Origin: Candidatus Onthoplasma sp.
GTDB taxonomy: Bacteria > Bacillota > Clostridia > Christensenellales > UBA1242
Assembly: GCA_965646995.1 (NCBI GenBank)
Contig: CBFGBH010000007.1
Location: 4,585 to 68,584 of the forward strand
DNA length: 64,000 nucleotides
Reading direction: 5' to 3'
The notes beneath the pieces were generated by a model. That model had not been told where the DNA came from. It worked only from the letters and a program-made list of their open reading frames with translations, and ran no database searches. A program made the translations under genes and the position numbers. Numbering within the stretch: position 1 is the first letter of the stretch; the number at the start of each line of letters is the position of its first letter. Shown in pieces: positions 5,769 through 45,627 of this stretch.

Positions 5769-6599
5769 ATGAGATTTAAAGAATATCTAAGTGAAAGAAA
5801 AAAAAGAAAGTTTAAAAAGAAATATAAAGTAGGTTTGTGTTTAAGTGGCGGTGGAGCTAGGGGATTTGCGCATTTGGGTGCATTTAAGGCATTTGAAGAA
5901 TATGGCATTACATTCGACATGGTAGCAGGTACTAGTGCAGGCAGCCTTTTCGGTGCAATTTATGCTACAGGGATTTCATATGAAGATATGTACAAATTAA
6001 CAGATGGAGTTAAAAATACTGATTTTAGGAGCGCTAAACTAGGATTTTTACCCTCTAGAATGGATAGGTTATCCGCTCTAATTAATAAAACATTGACTAT
6101 AGAGAGGATAGAAGATTTACCCATTCCACTTTATGTAGTAGCAGTGGATTTAAAGACGGGAAAAGAATTGCATTTTAATACAGGAGAGATAGCTCCAGTT
6201 GTTTGTGGTAGTTGTGCTATACCAGGAGTGTTCTTGCCAGTCAAATATAAAAATATGGTGCTAATTGATGGAGGTTCGCGCAATAATATTCCGGCAGATG
6301 TTTTAAAAATGGCCGATTGTGACTTTGTAGTAACGATTGATTGTAACTGTTCGCGTGGTGGGGGTACTAGTAGCAATAATATTTTCACTCAATTTATGAC
6401 AGCAGTAGGTATTATGATGGTCAATAATTCAGTTCAAGGTAAAAATTATAGCGATATTGTTATATGTCCAGATATGAGACGCTTTAATTCATTGAAAATT
6501 ATTGACAAAGATGCTATGATAGAAGAAGGATACAAGGCTACAATAGCTAAGATGCCGGAAATTCTTGACCTATTTCTAGGCAAAATCAAAAAAAGATAA
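5769..6599 (+). CDS. Patatin-like phospholipase
   Basis: GGGARG oxyanion motif, GTSAG nucleophile elbow and a later DGG motif. Confidence 0.8.
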   Translation: MRFKEYLSERKKRKFKKKYKVGLCLSGGGARGFAHLGAFKAFEEYGITFDMVAGTSAGSLFGAIYATGISYEDMYKLTDGVKNTDFRSAKLGFLPSRMDRLSALINKTLTIERIEDLPIPLYVVAVDLKTGKELHFNTGEIAPVVCGSCAIPGVFLPVKYKNMVLIDGGSRNNIPADVLKMADCDFVVTIDCNCSRGGGTSSNNIFTQFMTAVGIMMVNNSVQGKNYSDIVICPDMRRFNSLKIIDKDAMIEEGYKATIAKMPEILDLFLGKIKKR

Positions 6600-8263: not shown

Positions 8264-8803
8264 TTATCTCTTACTAAATTGTGGAGCACGACGAGCTTTC
8301 TTGAGACCGTATTTCTTACGCTCTTTCTTTCTAGCGTCACGAGTGATGAAGCCAGCTTTCTTAAGAGTAGGGCGTAGTTCAGGTCTGAACTCTGCTAATG
8401 CTCTAGTGATACCATGACGAAGTGCACCGGCCTGACCAGCTTTACCACCGCCATAGATGTTAGCAGTGATATCTACATTGCCTTCAGTCTCAGTTAATAC
8501 TAGAGGCTGTTTAACGATAGTGATAAGAGTATCAAGGTCGAAATATTCCTTTAATTCTTCACCATTAACTTTAATGCTACCAGTACCGGTAGTTAAGCGC
8601 ACACGAGCTACAGAGCATTTTCTTCTGCCAGTGCCTAAAAATTCTTGCACTTTAGCTTTAGCTGTTTTTGGTTTACTAGCCTTAGGAGCAATAGTTTTAG
8701 TTGTAGTTACCTTTGTAGCAGTTTTAGTCTCAGTAGCTTTAGGCTCAGTTTTAGCTACCTTAGTAGTCTTTTTAACTGTCTTCTTTTCTTCTAAATCAGC
8801 CAT
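8264..8803 (-). CDS. rpsI: 30S ribosomal protein S9 with a ~50-aa Lys/Thr/Ala/Pro-rich N-terminal extension
   Basis: [12 protein letters not shown] core and [19 protein letters not shown]-terminus. The start overlaps the rplM stop. Confidence 0.95.
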
Positions 8804-9395: not shown

Positions 9396-10139
9396 TTATT
9401 CAGATAGTATTTTTTGCAGACATTTTAATGTCTGTTCGTTGATTTTAATGATATCAGACGATTTGAGTTCGTTTTCTACTTTTAAACTAATTGCGACTTT
9501 AGTGTCTTTGTCCATAGTTTTTATGTAAGTTTCTTTATATATTTTTATATCACTTGCGAATTGAGACTTGTTCTTATTGAGCTGATAATTCTCTAAAATA
9601 TGCTTCATAGAGATGAATAGATTAAAATAAGTGGATTCGGTAGTATCAATGACTTTTTCTTCAGTATGAGCATGTGTAATTTTTATTTTTTTGACATTTG
9701 CATATATCAAGACGGATATAAATGCAAATATCAGACTCAATACTACTATTTCAATGACCATTTTTTGTAAGTTAGATAGAGTAGGTAAGTTATTTTGCAG
9801 TTTATTAAAATAAATTCCGACAGCTTCGAATAAATTGTATTTTACTTCGCATATGAATATAGACTCAACGAACATTGTGGCGATTATATTTAAAATTGCA
9901 GACCACAATACGCACCAAATGAAAGCGCCGAATACACTTCGCCAAGTAGGTCGACAATAGTGTAGGAATACAGCGATAGCTATCAATATGCCTATAATTG
10001 TTACGACGAAGTCATATAGATTGTATGCATAGAGAATGGCGAATACAATACTGGCGATTAATAGTGTATGGAAACTAAGTCCGAGAGCTTTTGCTTTACT
10101 CGGCTCAATGTGGCGTTCTTTTTTCTCTTTTTTGCTCAT
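9396..10139 (-). CDS. Polytopic membrane protein, paralogue A (paired with 11005-11766)
   Basis: AAGGAG RBS and ATG 10139. Shares an ordered set of motifs with the downstream paralogue (KA.G.SF; W..V...F.WC..W...LNI; E.IFIC; YFNLF). Confidence 0.7.
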   Translation of the reverse strand: MSKKEKKERHIEPSKAKALGLSFHTLLIASIVFAILYAYNLYDFVVTIIGILIAIAVFLHYCRPTWRSVFGAFIWCVLWSAILNIIATMFVESIFICEVKYNLFEAVGIYFNKLQNNLPTLSNLQKMVIEIVVLSLIFAFISVLIYANVKKIKITHAHTEEKVIDTTESTYFNLFISMKHILENYQLNKNKSQFASDIKIYKETYIKTMDKDTKVAISLKVENELKSSDIIKINEQTLKCLQKILSE

Positions 10140-10221
10140 ATGGCACTCCTTATGAATAAAATATAGCATATATTAAAAAAAATGTCAACCCCATCATAAT
10201 ATTGACATGGTTAACATTCTG

Positions 10222-11003
10222 TCATACAATATCTGGTGTATCTACATAAAAACCCGAACTTCCCATACGCCTAGCGAATGAGATCTCTTTAGAATTAGTT
10301 GGAGTATGTACGAGAATAGGTTTATATCGGCTTAAATAAGACTTGTTAGAGTTAATTGAAGAGATAGGTAGAGTTATTGCTATAATACGCATATCATTAA
10401 AATTTGATATTATTTTAAAAGCAGAATAGTGGGATATATAGTTAGTATAAATATATTCTTTGAAACTATATTTTTCTTTTGCGATTTTCCACATATCTAA
10501 TGAATATATTTGAGGTATTATAACATTGTTTAAATCAATTTCGGTATTATTGTTTAATTTAACAATCCGGTCTAGTACACCAATGGGGTCAATTTTACTA
10601 TCAATTATGATTTTTATATCAGGATGTGACTCGAGTGTTTTGATTAGCCATTCTTCATTAATGGGAGTAAACCGATTAAATACTTTTAATTTCAAAAATT
10701 CATCATAACTTATATTTGAATTGCTTATGCTTAAACCATAAAATTCGTGTGTTCCAATTAAATGATTGTCTTTTGATAGTTCAAAATCATATTCAAAATA
10801 TCTACAACCTTTTTTATAATAATATTCAAAACTTTCTTGAGAATTCAGATAATTATATCCCTCGTAATTACCGCCAGCATGTAATATTACAAATTCATTG
10901 TTTGAATAAGGGGGGGGGTCACGCTATTTGAGATAATACTAGGCTGAGGTAGTATAAATGAAAGTAAAAATATTGTGCATATTATAATAATTTTAGATAT
11001 CAT
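10222..11003 (-). pseudogene. Secreted PLC/GDPD-like phosphodiesterase, frameshifted at a C9 tract (candidate phase-variable gene, currently OFF)
   Basis: ATG 11003 gives MISKIIIICTIFLLSFILPQPSIISNSVTPP, then goes out of frame at the tract and stops. With 10 or 7 C the reading continues ...PPPYSNNEFVILHAGGNYEG...IGTHEF... into ORF 10222-10695. Confidence 0.7.
10910..10918. repeat. G9 (C9 on the coding strand) homopolymer
   Basis: Counted directly. Confirmed by the antisense ORF reading AAG GGG GGG GGT. Confidence 0.95.
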
Positions 11004-11004
11004 G

Positions 11005-11766
11005 TTAGACCTGATTTTTAATCATCTTATACAATAAAGTTAAAGCATTCTTTTCAGTTGTGCCGAGATTTTCTTTATTAAGTTCGGCATCGATGATTTT
11101 AACTAATGTATCTTTCTCTTCTTGAGAGAGCTTTTCTAGATATGTAGTACGTAGCTCTTCCATATCAGCTTTTAATAGTTCTTTATCCTTATCGTTATTA
11201 AATCTCTCCAAACTACGCTTAGCGGTAGAGAATAGATTAAAATACAATAATTCTATATTAGCGTCTTGAATAGTAGTAGAAGTATTTTCAGAGTTATCTT
11301 TAGATTTTCCTTCTTTCTTTTTGTTTACCACATACGAACCGATGAAATATGCAAGCCCAATTGCAGCACAGAATACAGTGATGAGTGTAGATTCAGTGAT
11401 TATTTTTATAAATAAATTGCTAGCTTCTTCGCTGGTTTGTAATAAGGTATTGAGTAGTCCAAATGCAGTTATTAAATCGTAGCCTTCCATACATATAAAT
11501 ATACCTTCAGTGATATACACTGCTGTAATGTTCAGTAAAACCAGCCACACAGTACACCAGACGAATGATACTAAAATATTTACCCAATTAGTTTTAGTGA
11601 ATTTGTTGAAAACAATCATGGATAGCAATATACCAGCAATAGGAACTAAATATAGATAATAGCCAAAACCATATATTAAACCAAATAGTACACTAGTAGC
11701 TAAGCAAACTAAGAAACTGAATCCATATGCTTTCACTATACTAGGTTTTACATCTTTTTTATTCAT
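11005..11766 (-). CDS. Polytopic membrane protein, paralogue B
   Basis: 253 aa with the same architecture and motif order as 9396-10139: N-terminal TM bundle and a C-terminal helical soluble part. Confidence 0.7.
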   Translation of the reverse strand: MNKKDVKPSIVKAYGFSFLVCLATSVLFGLIYGFGYYLYLVPIAGILLSMIVFNKFTKTNWVNILVSFVWCTVWLVLLNITAVYITEGIFICMEGYDLITAFGLLNTLLQTSEEASNLFIKIITESTLITVFCAAIGLAYFIGSYVVNKKKEGKSKDNSENTSTTIQDANIELLYFNLFSTAKRSLERFNNDKDKELLKADMEELRTTYLEKLSQEEKDTLVKIIDAELNKENLGTTEKNALTLLYKMIKNQV

Positions 11767-11824
11767 ATTATCTCCTTATCTCTTATTAATATATTATCAA
11801 AATTTTATTAAACTGTAAAGAATA

Positions 11825-16288: not shown

Positions 16289-17632
16289 ATGGATTATTTA
16301 GAAATAGTGAAGATTATAATGATAGTGATTAATGCAATATTATTGATATTCCCACTCCAGTATGTATTTATTTGTTTGCCAGGAGTATTTTTAAAACCAA
16401 AGAAATTTCCCACGAGGGAGGAAAAACTTAAATACGGAATGATAATAACAGCTAGAAACGAAGAGAAGGTAATAGCTGGACTTATTGATAGCATTAAAAA
16501 ATCAGATTATCCACAGGATAAAATCTCAATTTTTGTAATTGCTCATAATTGTACTGATAGAACAGCGGAGATAGCAAGAGAGCATGGAGCTATAGTATGT
16601 GAATACAATAATCCTAATGAAAGAACTAAAGGCTATGCTCTAAAAAGAATTTTTGAATATATTAATACTAATTATGGTATAACAAATTTTGATGGTTATC
16701 ATATTTTTGATGCTGATAATATTCTAGATAAAAATTATATTACTAAACTTAATGATGCTTTTTTATATTATGATAAAAAACGACCAGTCATGGGGTTCCG
16801 TAATTCTAAAAATTTCGGTGAAAATACTCAAACTGCTATGTATGGACTTCTATATGTTTCTGAATGTAGATTGGAAGATGTTACTAGGTCGTATCTAGAT
16901 ATTTCGTCTAGATTGATAGGTTCTGGCTATGTCGTTAGTAGTGAAATGGTTAAAGATGGTTGGGATTGTGTAATTTTGTCTGACGACGTTGATTTTTCCA
17001 CAGAGCAAGTTCTCAGAGGAGAAAAAGTAATGTATTGCCATGAGGCAATGTATTATGATGAGCATCCTACGACTTTTAAAGCTATGTGGCGTCAAAGATT
17101 ACGTTGGTCAAAGGGTGTTATGGTTGTAGCGAAAAAACATTGGAATTCACTTTGGAAAAATCTATTTAGAAGCAAGAAAGCAGGCTCTTTAAAAGATAGT
17201 TCAAAATCTCCAAAGAAGATATCTACTATTGATTTGATGTTTAAATATGTGCCTATGGCATTATTAGGTTTTATAGCTTTATTTATAAATATAATATTAG
17301 TAGCAATAGCACCATTATTTGGTTGTGACCCTGTAAGCGCATGGATAGGACTACTAAATTCTTTGAGTTGGGGCATGCTTTTAGGTTATGGTATACTGAT
17401 ATTATGTCCAATAATATGTTATATACTTGAGAGAAAGACTATTGTTGGGGTTTCTTTGTGGACGAAAATTAAATCAACTTTATTATTTCCTTTATATATG
17501 TTTTTGCTAGTTCCATTACAAATTCAGGCACTATTCACTAAAAAATTTGAATGGAAACCTATAGAACATAAAAACACATCAAATTTTGATACATTTAATA
17601 AAATTGAGAATCAAACGGAGGATAAAAAATAA
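16289..17632 (+). CDS. Membrane-embedded processive family-2 glycosyltransferase (PgaC/IcaA/BcsA-like synthase)
   Basis: One N-terminal TM, catalytic motifs TARNEE, FDADN and SDDVDFS, QRLRW (17093-17107), and 4 C-terminal TM segments. Confidence 0.75.
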   Translation: MDYLEIVKIIMIVINAILLIFPLQYVFICLPGVFLKPKKFPTREEKLKYGMIITARNEEKVIAGLIDSIKKSDYPQDKISIFVIAHNCTDRTAEIAREHGAIVCEYNNPNERTKGYALKRIFEYINTNYGITNFDGYHIFDADNILDKNYITKLNDAFLYYDKKRPVMGFRNSKNFGENTQTAMYGLLYVSECRLEDVTRSYLDISSRLIGSGYVVSSEMVKDGWDCVILSDDVDFSTEQVLRGEKVMYCHEAMYYDEHPTTFKAMWRQRLRWSKGVMVVAKKHWNSLWKNLFRSKKAGSLKDSSKSPKKISTIDLMFKYVPMALLGFIALFINIILVAIAPLFGCDPVSAWIGLLNSLSWGMLLGYGILILCPIICYILERKTIVGVSLWTKIKSTLLFPLYMFLLVPLQIQALFTKKFEWKPIEHKNTSNFDTFNKIENQTEDKK

Positions 17633-19338
17633 TGAAGGTAGTAATAATATCAGGCGGTTCAGGTAATGATACTCTGATTAAAGGATTAACTAAATATGTT
17701 GATTCGGGTTTGGATATTAAAGTAATAGTCAACGCCTACGATAATGGAAAATCTACAGGTGTATGTAGAGCGATAACGAACACTTTAGGTGTATCAGATA
17801 TTAGGAAAAATCACTCCCGTATGTATGAAGCAATTTGTGCAGGGAGGGTTGGCCCTGACAAAAACTTGTTGGAATTCTACAATAATAGATATACATTCGA
17901 GAAAGGGCGCGAATTAAAGCAAGTTCTACAGCTTCTAAAGAAATGGAATTTAACAGAATATAACAAGTTTGTTAAAAACTTTTTCAAGCATGATTCTATC
18001 TCTAATTATGAATTTAAAGATTTTAGTGTGTCAAACATAGTTTATTCGGAGATGTATGAAGAATTAGGTTATGAGATTACTAATCGACATTTCTGCGATA
18101 AATTGGGCATTGATGATTTCGTGATACTAAATTCGTTTGATAATCTCTTCATTAAAGCACAGACAGAATCAGGTCATGTCATAGAAGATGAAGGGGAGAC
18201 AGTATTTTGGAATAATCCAAAAGACAAGATTGTCAAAACCCTATATGATGTAAAATCGCATTTTGGCTTAAATGAGCGTGCCGTGAATTTAGTTCTGGAT
18301 GCAGATTTAATTATTATTTCTACCGGTACATTCTGGAGTTCAATTCAGCCTACAATTGAATATTTAGACTTTTATAAAAACATCAACGAGTCAAAAGCCA
18401 AGAAAATATGGGTCATGAATAATGAAGAAGACGGAGATTCGTTTGGAGTATCTAATTTAGAATTGATTGAATATATGGCTAAGACAGGACTAGACTTGAG
18501 TCAGTTCAAAATATTAATCAACGAAGATGCTAGACCGTCTATGAAAATGAGCAATGAAAAGTACAATTTTATCAAGAAGTCTATGGGGAATACCAAAGGT
18601 AAACATGATGGTAATAAGTATGCTAAGGCAATATTACAAGTTTATTTCGGTGTAGAAGATCTAGTTAATTATGATAAAATTTTATTTGATTTTGATGACA
18701 CAATATGGACTAGGTCATTTGATAAAGATTTAGTAAAGTATTCCTTGCAGAATACCCAATTAATTAATGATTATTTGTCTAAAAAATCTGTTATTATCAG
18801 TGGCAATTCGTACAATAGTATATATAAAAAATTAGCCACATATTATGGTAATTCGCTTGAAAAATGGAAAGTTGATATATGGGCGGATGCCAATACCACA
18901 TTATATAGAAAAAATAAGGTGGTTGAGATAATTAATAGTCTGGTTATTCCAGATAGTGCTGATAAAGATATAGAGAAATTGACTAAAGATTATGGTTTAA
19001 CAATGCAAAAGATAGGAAACCCTATCGTAAACTATAAATTTAAACCATTATCAAACCTCGAGAGAATGTTACTAGTTGATTTGGTTAATAGTAAATTTAA
19101 AGGTCGGTTCAAAGCCAGTATGACAGGCAAAACCACAGTAGATATTTTACATTCTAATAATACTAAAGAGGTTGTATTCGATCATTGCGGTTTTGATAAA
19201 CTAAATACATTATTCATAGGAGATGAATTAGAGAATGGTAATGATTCTGTCATATATAAAAGATGCACCTCAGCAGTAGAAGTAAAAGATATAGTGGACA
19301 CCAATATAATATTAAAACTTTTGTTAGGAGATAAATAA
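17632..19338 (+). CDS. Fusion protein: CofD/YvcK-family (UPF0052) transferase domain plus HAD-IIB-type phosphatase domain
   Basis: N-domain: IISGGSGN, NAYDNGKSTG, ISTGTFWSSIQP, NNEEDGDSFG. From about aa 348: DFDDT, ISGNS, MTGKTTVDI, IGDELENGND. The start overlaps the upstream stop by 1 nt. Confidence 0.6.
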   Translation: MKVVIISGGSGNDTLIKGLTKYVDSGLDIKVIVNAYDNGKSTGVCRAITNTLGVSDIRKNHSRMYEAICAGRVGPDKNLLEFYNNRYTFEKGRELKQVLQLLKKWNLTEYNKFVKNFFKHDSISNYEFKDFSVSNIVYSEMYEELGYEITNRHFCDKLGIDDFVILNSFDNLFIKAQTESGHVIEDEGETVFWNNPKDKIVKTLYDVKSHFGLNERAVNLVLDADLIIISTGTFWSSIQPTIEYLDFYKNINESKAKKIWVMNNEEDGDSFGVSNLELIEYMAKTGLDLSQFKILINEDARPSMKMSNEKYNFIKKSMGNTKGKHDGNKYAKAILQVYFGVEDLVNYDKILFDFDDTIWTRSFDKDLVKYSLQNTQLINDYLSKKSVIISGNSYNSIYKKLATYYGNSLEKWKVDIWADANTTLYRKNKVVEIINSLVIPDSADKDIEKLTKDYGLTMQKIGNPIVNYKFKPLSNLERMLLVDLVNSKFKGRFKASMTGKTTVDILHSNNTKEVVFDHCGFDKLNTLFIGDELENGNDSVIYKRCTSAVEVKDIVDTNIILKLLLGDK

Positions 19339-20673: not shown

Positions 20674-20705
20674 ATTATAGCACAAGGGGGGGGGGTGGCT
20701 GTCAA
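20674..20705 (-). promoter_or_regulatory. Promoter with a C10 tract in a 20-nt spacer
   Basis: Minus strand: TTGACA (20705-20700), GCCA, C10, TTGTGC, TATAAT (20679-74). TGc immediately 5' of the -10 gives an extended -10. Confidence 0.55.
20686..20695. repeat. G10 (C10 on minus strand) homopolymer
   Basis: Counted directly from 'cacaaggggg gggggtggct'. Confidence 0.9.
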
Positions 20706-45594: not shown

Positions 45595-45627
45595 TTGTCA
45601 AAATTTGAAAAAGGGGGGGGGTATACT
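45595..45627 (+). promoter_or_regulatory. Promoter-like element with a G9 tract in a 21-nt spacer
   Basis: TTGTCA (45595-600), AAATTTGAAAAA, G9, TATACT (45622-27). Preceded by CTAAAAATTTTTTAAAAA, the same UP-like module as the rRNA promoters. Confidence 0.5.
45613..45621. repeat. G9 homopolymer
   Basis: Read as GGG GGG GGG in the ORF-track translation (KGGGY). Confidence 0.95.

Follow-up and report, generated by a model that had tools for sequence, protein, structure and literature searches.

A probable slipped-strand switch in the gene for a predicted GDPD-type surface phosphodiesterase of an uncultured gut Clostridia-type bacterium

When a run of nine cytosines divides a bacterial gene into a short leader and an open frame without a start, is the gene being lost, or can it be turned on again? 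The question was raised by a locus on the minus strand of a 64,000-nucleotide stretch of DNA from Candidatus Onthoplasma sp. (hereafter the window), where the earlier note had seen a 9-C tract dividing a signal-peptide start from an enzyme frame, with a product of about 260 aa if the frame were repaired. We consider the probable answer to be a phase-variable gene, switched by slipped-strand mispairing and sequenced in its OFF state, the switching within a population being read from the alleles found in natural samples.

A nine-C tract between a leader and a catalytic frame

The layout was confirmed from the sequence. The C run of the minus strand (10918-10910) is, as read in the window, exactly 9 C, or G9 on the plus strand. 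From the ATG at 11003 the leader reads MISKIIIICTIFLLSFILPQPSIISNSVTPP, then enters the tract and meets a premature stop 7 codons on. The resulting minus-strand ORF of 38 codons (10887..11003; MISKIIIICTIFLLSFILPQPSIISNSVTPPLIQTMNL, stop at 10887) has, by hydropathy, a short positively charged start followed by a single hydrophobic segment, either a signal peptide or an anchor. The second frame, also on the minus strand, is open for 233 codons (10222..10923, stop at 10222) and holds a complete catalytic domain of the GDPD-type TIM-barrel kind, with no ATG, GTG, or TTG ahead of the TTG at 10695. One C more or two C less at the tract fuses both frames into 260 aa, and a tract of in-frame length encodes Pro-Pro-Pro. 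The frame across the tract is set by the tract length, the homopolymer being placed between the signal peptide and the catalytic domain.

We propose that this C9 homopolymer (10910..10918, minus strand) lies toward the 5' end of the gene, in a dispensable linker from the signal peptide to the catalytic barrel, and works as a slipped-strand mispairing switch. With C10 or C7 the 260-aa protein would be made, and with C9 translation would end after 38 codons and the catalytic domain would not be made. The sequenced state had been called OFF, and the C9 allele bears this out, since it puts the stop after 38 codons and leaves the catalytic frame without a start of its own.

The tract is real and not random, and neither chance nor codon usage accounts for it. 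In the genome that contains the window (G000; 1.04 Mb in 19 contigs, 34% GC), runs of G or C with lengths of 5, 6, 7, 8, 9, and 10 number 117, 9, 3, 1, 4, and 4, respectively, a bimodal distribution. Eight runs reach a length of at least 9, where about 0.017 would be expected if the decay from lengths 3 to 6 is extrapolated and 0.2 under a model of independent bases. At 4.6%, CCC is the rarest Pro codon of the genome; in 213,000 codons Pro-Pro-Pro occurs just twice more, both times without CCC.

The predicted enzyme and the origin of its gene

The product had been described as a PLC-like or GDPD enzyme; the GDPD assignment and the catalytic pattern stand, the PLC part does not. In the HMM search that the earlier note had proposed, the window protein itself scored 21 bits against Pfam GDPD (PF03009), below the cutoff of 23.6, and Pfam GDPD was matched by 24 of 27 aligned homologues, with a best E of 2.5e-12. 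PI-PLC gave no Pfam match to the window protein at E up to 1 and is absent from the Foldseek top 50. The PI-PLC assignment was dropped, HMM and fold comparisons having returned GDPD matches only.

Relatives were found at two levels. A large protein collection contained five at E <= 0.001, and a degenerate-pattern scan of species genomes gave 28 loci with 35-43% identity, all in gut MAGs that belong to Clostridia and Bacilli. The family profile matched GP-PDE and GDPD chains of the PDB (E 5e-10 to 1e-7), the best matches being the phage K gp155 and phi812 spike domains (5e-10). The AF2 model built on the alignment reached a pLDDT of 92.1 and a pTM of 0.89, and GDPD-type TIM barrels dominate its Foldseek top 50 (E 1e-9 to 1e-6, TM 0.64-0.78).

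Six residues (H15, E44, D46, H59, D108, and K110) are invariant across 27 sequences. The profile alignment places the family residues over the H, E-x-D, and H of 9F49, a GP-PDE of solved structure, and we take the invariant residues to be the counterparts of His17, Glu44, Asp46, His59, and Glu119 in the GDPD of T. tengcongensis. After the first catalytic His, where the canonical HRG motif has a phosphate-binding Arg, the family has Ala, and His-Ala-Gly is invariant in it. This is therefore a divergent GDPD subfamily, and its substrate may differ. Extracellular GDPDs (GlpQ of B. subtilis and S. aureus, 5T9B and 2OOG; the GP-PDE domains of phage K gp155 and the phi812 spike, 9F5M and 9EUL) have the same TIM-barrel fold (TM 0.7-0.78), and their catalytic His/Glu/Asp/His align with those of the window enzyme, whose homologues are secreted or lipid-anchored; their identity to the window enzyme is, however, only 12-20%, and they have the canonical His-Arg where His-Ala is invariant here.

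Most homologues begin with a lipoprotein signal that carries an L-x-x-C lipobox, and a few with a plain anchor like that of the window protein. Taken with the gene's own signal or anchor leader, these starts lead us to predict that the product is a cell-surface GDPD-type phosphodiesterase, either signal-anchored or secreted. GlpQ and the phage GP-PDE domains cleave polymers of glycerol phosphate (teichoic acid) or diesters, and H. influenzae protein D is another extracellular GDPD enzyme. By analogy with GlpQ and the phage domains, the substrate is suggested to be of the glycerol-phosphate diester type, candidates being glycerophosphodiesters from the diet or the host and a polymer of the teichoic-acid type. 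The enzyme would then act on such diesters at the cell surface, in nutrient scavenging or in the trimming of such a polymer; as a conjecture, a surface-polymer role would suit the usual cargo of contingency loci. A literature search found none of these extracellular GDPDs reported as phase-variable, and no phase-variable GDPD at all.

One homologue from a gut MAG of 32% GC (L010) encodes HAGGG as CAC GCT GGG GGG GGG, with an in-frame G9 at 6031-6039, whereas all other homologues checked use mixed Gly codons for HAGGG. Judged by its sequence, this run is a possible further case of a homopolymer switch in the gene family, one that would have arisen independently.

On the chromosome, the enzyme gene lies between memA (11005..11766, minus strand), which encodes a 253-aa membrane protein upstream, and memB (9396..10139, minus strand), which encodes one of 247 aa downstream. 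That these are clear paralogues was upheld (28% identity, E 2e-34), and the genome has no further copy. A functional trio of the enzyme with its flanking paralogues was rejected, because in the relative G056 (L040, G056:C22:2500-7446) the pair stands adjacent at the same truA-rplM locus without the enzyme gene, in the order truA-memA-memB-rplM-rpsI, an empty site with 84 nt between the paralogues. None of the 28 loci of enzyme homologues has the paralogues beside it. At 27.7%, the enzyme gene is lower in GC than any of its neighbours, and it was found in 2 of 25 genomes of the genus, the other copy being at a different locus. The empty site, the low GC, and the patchy presence therefore indicate insertion of the gene between the members of a conserved tandem pair, so that the layout by itself implies no functional link, and the empty site of G056 places this insertion in the lineage of the present species; the two membrane-protein genes would be older than the enzyme gene acquired between them.

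The enzyme ATG at 11003 sits 1 nt past the memA stop and no good promoter was found directly ahead of it; the gene is therefore most likely cotranscribed with memA. A candidate promoter for both (TTTACA-17-TAATAT with TG, at 11791..11819 of the minus strand) was recognized by consensus match only. As memB has its own near-consensus promoter (TTGACA-17-TATATT with TG, at 10160..10188 of the minus strand), a polar effect on it need not follow when the enzyme gene is OFF. A promoter of the same type is present in the 84-nt gap of G056. In the RNA run, a contig lies on memA and none on the enzyme gene.

Two further features of this neighbourhood were recorded. The 17-nt spacer of the memB promoter contains a T8 run (TTGACAttttttttaatatatgcTATATT). 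Ribosomal protein S9 (window 8264-8803, minus strand) is 179 aa long, with some 50 residues rich in Lys, Thr, and Ala as an N-terminal extension, and the S9 orthologue of G056 is likewise long (172 aa).

Tract length in natural samples

Tract lengths were read from assembled contigs of public runs, at a depth of 2-5-fold; run metadata point to the mouse gut. In this comparison with related strains, which the earlier note had proposed, C9 was found in four independent assemblies from at least three studies, namely the window, X1, X9, and a contig of SRR35209588 (L042). The last of these is a 10-kb contig, 99.3% identical over 4.4 kb, and represents a strain that is 0.7% diverged. The in-frame C10 was found in X6, from a different study, on one 163-nt Logan contig of depth 2.7 that has no other difference over 162 nt. 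OFF is the state in 4 of the 5 observations, which include two lineages 0.7% apart. X6 has single-base variants elsewhere in common with the X1/X3 lineage, and therefore C9 and C10 occur within one near-identical lineage and do not mark an old split. From these alleles we infer frequent, reversible switching within a population. The contigs of X5, X7, X10, X12, X13, X15, and X16 contained none that spans the tract, and a pattern scan of a metagenome collection for more observations of the tract found nothing, as did exact-protein look-ups of two promoter-tract genes.

Could the 9 C simply be an error of sequencing or assembly, the true length being 10 C and the gene intact? Homopolymers this long are error-prone, and the contigs of several runs break at or near the tract. 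The contig of X3 ends at 10909, and at another long tract of the genome, on contig C5, those of X3 and X6 end at the near and far edge, respectively; such ends fit either heterogeneity or poor sequencing of these runs. The four independent assemblies nevertheless agree on 9 C, where uniform reads of 10 C had been named as the sign of an assembly error, and this explanation is very improbable.

Length changes do concentrate at such tracts. Six length differences were seen over 40 kb in four runs, and three of them, namely 10909 +G, 20683 +A, and 45607 +A, fall on or directly next to one of the three long G tracts (P ~9e-8 for a 22-nt zone per tract). At 20683 and 45607, the X1/X3 lineage keeps the number of G and has one A more in the A-run directly 5' of the tract, so that the spacer is longer by 1. 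Three promoter tracts have the same number of G in both lineages; the tracts are therefore not wildly unstable at the consensus level. At the tracts on contigs C5 and C4 no further length variant came to light, the C4 tract being unchanged in length in X3. Elsewhere, at 17841, a 568-aa gene (17632-19338) is longer by one in-frame GGG codon (an additional Gly) in X1, an ordinary strain difference.

The alleles can also be read as those of a plain, recent pseudogene, in which a single slip was neutral or beneficial, the gene is decaying, and C10 is the ancestral intact form kept in some strains. A fixed frameshift would fit the C9 majority (4 of 5 assemblies) common to two lineages 0.7% apart, the gene is an accessory, low-GC insertion in 2 of 25 genomes of the genus, and accidental tracts can mimic phase variation, a warning given in PMC11868660. 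We nevertheless consider this reading unlikely. The 233 codons of the 28% GC frame carry no second lesion in either lineage, and in the 0.7% diverged strain both of the two substitutions in the enzyme frame are synonymous, so that the 233-residue translation is identical, although two are too few for a selection test. The tract, moreover, is made of the rarest Pro codon, in a genome whose other tracts occupy promoter spacers, and the C10-bearing X6 has the SNPs of the C9-bearing X1/X3 lineage. A uniform 9 C with further decay in relatives had been given as the mark of a pseudogene; what was found is C10 in X6 and an intact frame at 0.7% divergence. The contingency-locus layout that had been proposed probably holds, supported by the tract excess, the C9 and C10 alleles, and the intact frame.

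Alternatively, C9 might itself be the working form, with a low level of enzyme produced through slippage of RNA polymerase or through a -1 ribosomal slip of tRNA-Pro on CCC CCC C. A -1 slip on the run yields exactly the in-frame product and C9 prevails among the assemblies; slippage of polymerases on homopolymers is established, and realignment is discussed in PMC9187656. The 90 nt downstream of the run, however, are without a stimulatory structure (z = +1.03, 172 of 200 shuffles fold as well), a C10 allele exists at the DNA level in X6, and among the contigs of the RNA run none lies over the tract. G/C runs form stable hybrids, on which transcriptional slippage is rarer than on A/T runs, and this counts against slippage of RNA polymerase on a run of C. 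We regard recoding as quite improbable, and return to the slipped-strand switch in the setting of the other tracts.

G/C tracts of the genome and genus, and known switches

The genome has 12 runs of G or C of at least 7, and 11 of these lie between a TTGACA and a -10-like hexamer, 30-190 nt ahead of gene starts, as runs of 7-10 in spacers of 15-21 nt. The promoter tracts are located at C1:81450, C1:159534, C2:2008, C2:154775, C4:113962, C5:6168, C8:34479, C10:76, and C12:2539 and, in the window, at 20686-20695 and 45613-45621. They mostly precede envelope genes; the products encoded behind them are a BspA-type LRR surface protein, a lipoprotein, a polytopic membrane protein of 461 aa, a membrane coiled-coil protein, a methyltransferase, a histidine phosphatase, and several small proteins. 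The C9 of the enzyme gene is the sole intragenic tract among the 12. A promoter-spacer role for it, like that of the other eleven, was considered and rejected, as its coding strand has neither a TTGACA nor a -10 in usable register; the opposite strand at C9 has only a weak TTGAAT-17-TATTTG, with no gene downstream.

The same arrangement recurs in the genus. A G/C run of at least 9 is present in 42 of 61 genomes, and the pattern of a TTGACA, a poly-G, and a -10 was found in 17 of the 61, while a control with the reversed pattern gave no match in any of them. Within a genome, paralogous promoter cassettes are told apart solely by the number of G, spanning G10 to G13: those of G007 (C1:163195, C6:67333, C14:26973, and C16:14) have G10, G11, G11, and G13, and the nine sites of G024 range over G10-G12. 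This excess of promoter-spacer tracts in the genome and across the genus argues that the lineage uses G/C tracts as expression devices. A mutator background deficient in mismatch repair was ruled out by the presence of MutS and MutL throughout the genus. From their sequences, the eleven promoter tracts are a candidate multi-locus set of phase-variable promoters, and together with the enzyme gene they would give this organism a small multi-locus set of phase-variable genes.

A broader reading, which we offer only tentatively and hold to be rather doubtful, is that the C9 tract is one node of a genus-wide multi-locus G/C set in these gut Clostridia of about 1 Mb (Christensenellales-type), with twelve loci here that are mostly promoter-spacer dials on envelope genes. 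New genes would be recruited into the set after their arrival, and GDPD at least twice independently, through the C9 linker and the G9 of L010. If GDPD was indeed recruited twice, this would point to fluctuating selection on its activity, for example, on the trimming of a surface polymer made of glycerol phosphate and used by phages as a receptor or by antibodies as a target.

The mechanism proposed for the enzyme gene is classical; it is the host lineage and the cargo that are new. The closest precedent is found in the pilus genes bbr_0113 and bbr_1889 of Bifidobacterium breve UCC2003, which are turned ON and OFF by intragenic G tracts (PMC9187656). There, too, the host is a gut commensal, an intragenic G/C homopolymer of 9-12 splits the first gene for a surface-structure product into two ORFs, the second ORF has no start, and the reference is annotated in the OFF state. 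Switching in B. breve was measured by maximum-depth sequencing and was shifted in mice (PMC9187656), whereas here it is read from alleles. B. breve is a high-GC actinobacterium and its switched genes encode pilus subunits, whereas the present genome is a low-GC, 1-Mb, uncultured one of Clostridia type and the cargo is an enzyme.

In Campylobacter, the tracts are mostly intragenic and MutSL-type mismatch repair is missing. By contrast, 11 of the 12 tracts found here lie in promoter spacers, with MutS and MutL present. C. jejuni resembles the present case in being low-GC and host-restricted, in its bimodal excess of G/C runs of at least 8, and in having multiple intragenic and intergenic tracts that control surface-modifying genes (PMC8355987, PMC8437040). 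Neisseria, with the spacer tracts of porA, opc, and fetA and with intragenic poly-G genes (PMC5320596), likewise has a multi-locus set in a repair-proficient background, its G/C tracts being located in -35/-10 spacers or within the 5' parts of coding sequences. Neisseria, however, is Gram-negative and lives on humans as a pathogen or commensal, and no GDPD is among those genes.

Repeat-driven multi-locus phase variation has been described almost only in pathogens, and a 2025 review (PMC11868660) finds it seemingly restricted to them, possibly through database bias. Our literature search returned nothing on repeat-driven phase variation in Christensenellales. The present commensal with a minimal genome has the signature of such a system in its bimodal tract lengths, its promoter-spacer tracts, and an intragenic candidate switch with both alleles in nature, in the presence of mismatch repair. 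If this is confirmed, annotation pipelines that call such genes pseudogenes would systematically discard switchable surface functions, and tract lengths in metagenomes could serve as a record of selection in the gut.

A last observation concerns two contig ends of the genome. The end of contig C2 (154775-154850) and the start of contig C10 (76-150) have a common flank on the -35 side of a poly-C tract, with a different other flank and with tracts of 10 and 8 C, respectively; either a break of the assembly at the tract or alternative joins could explain this.
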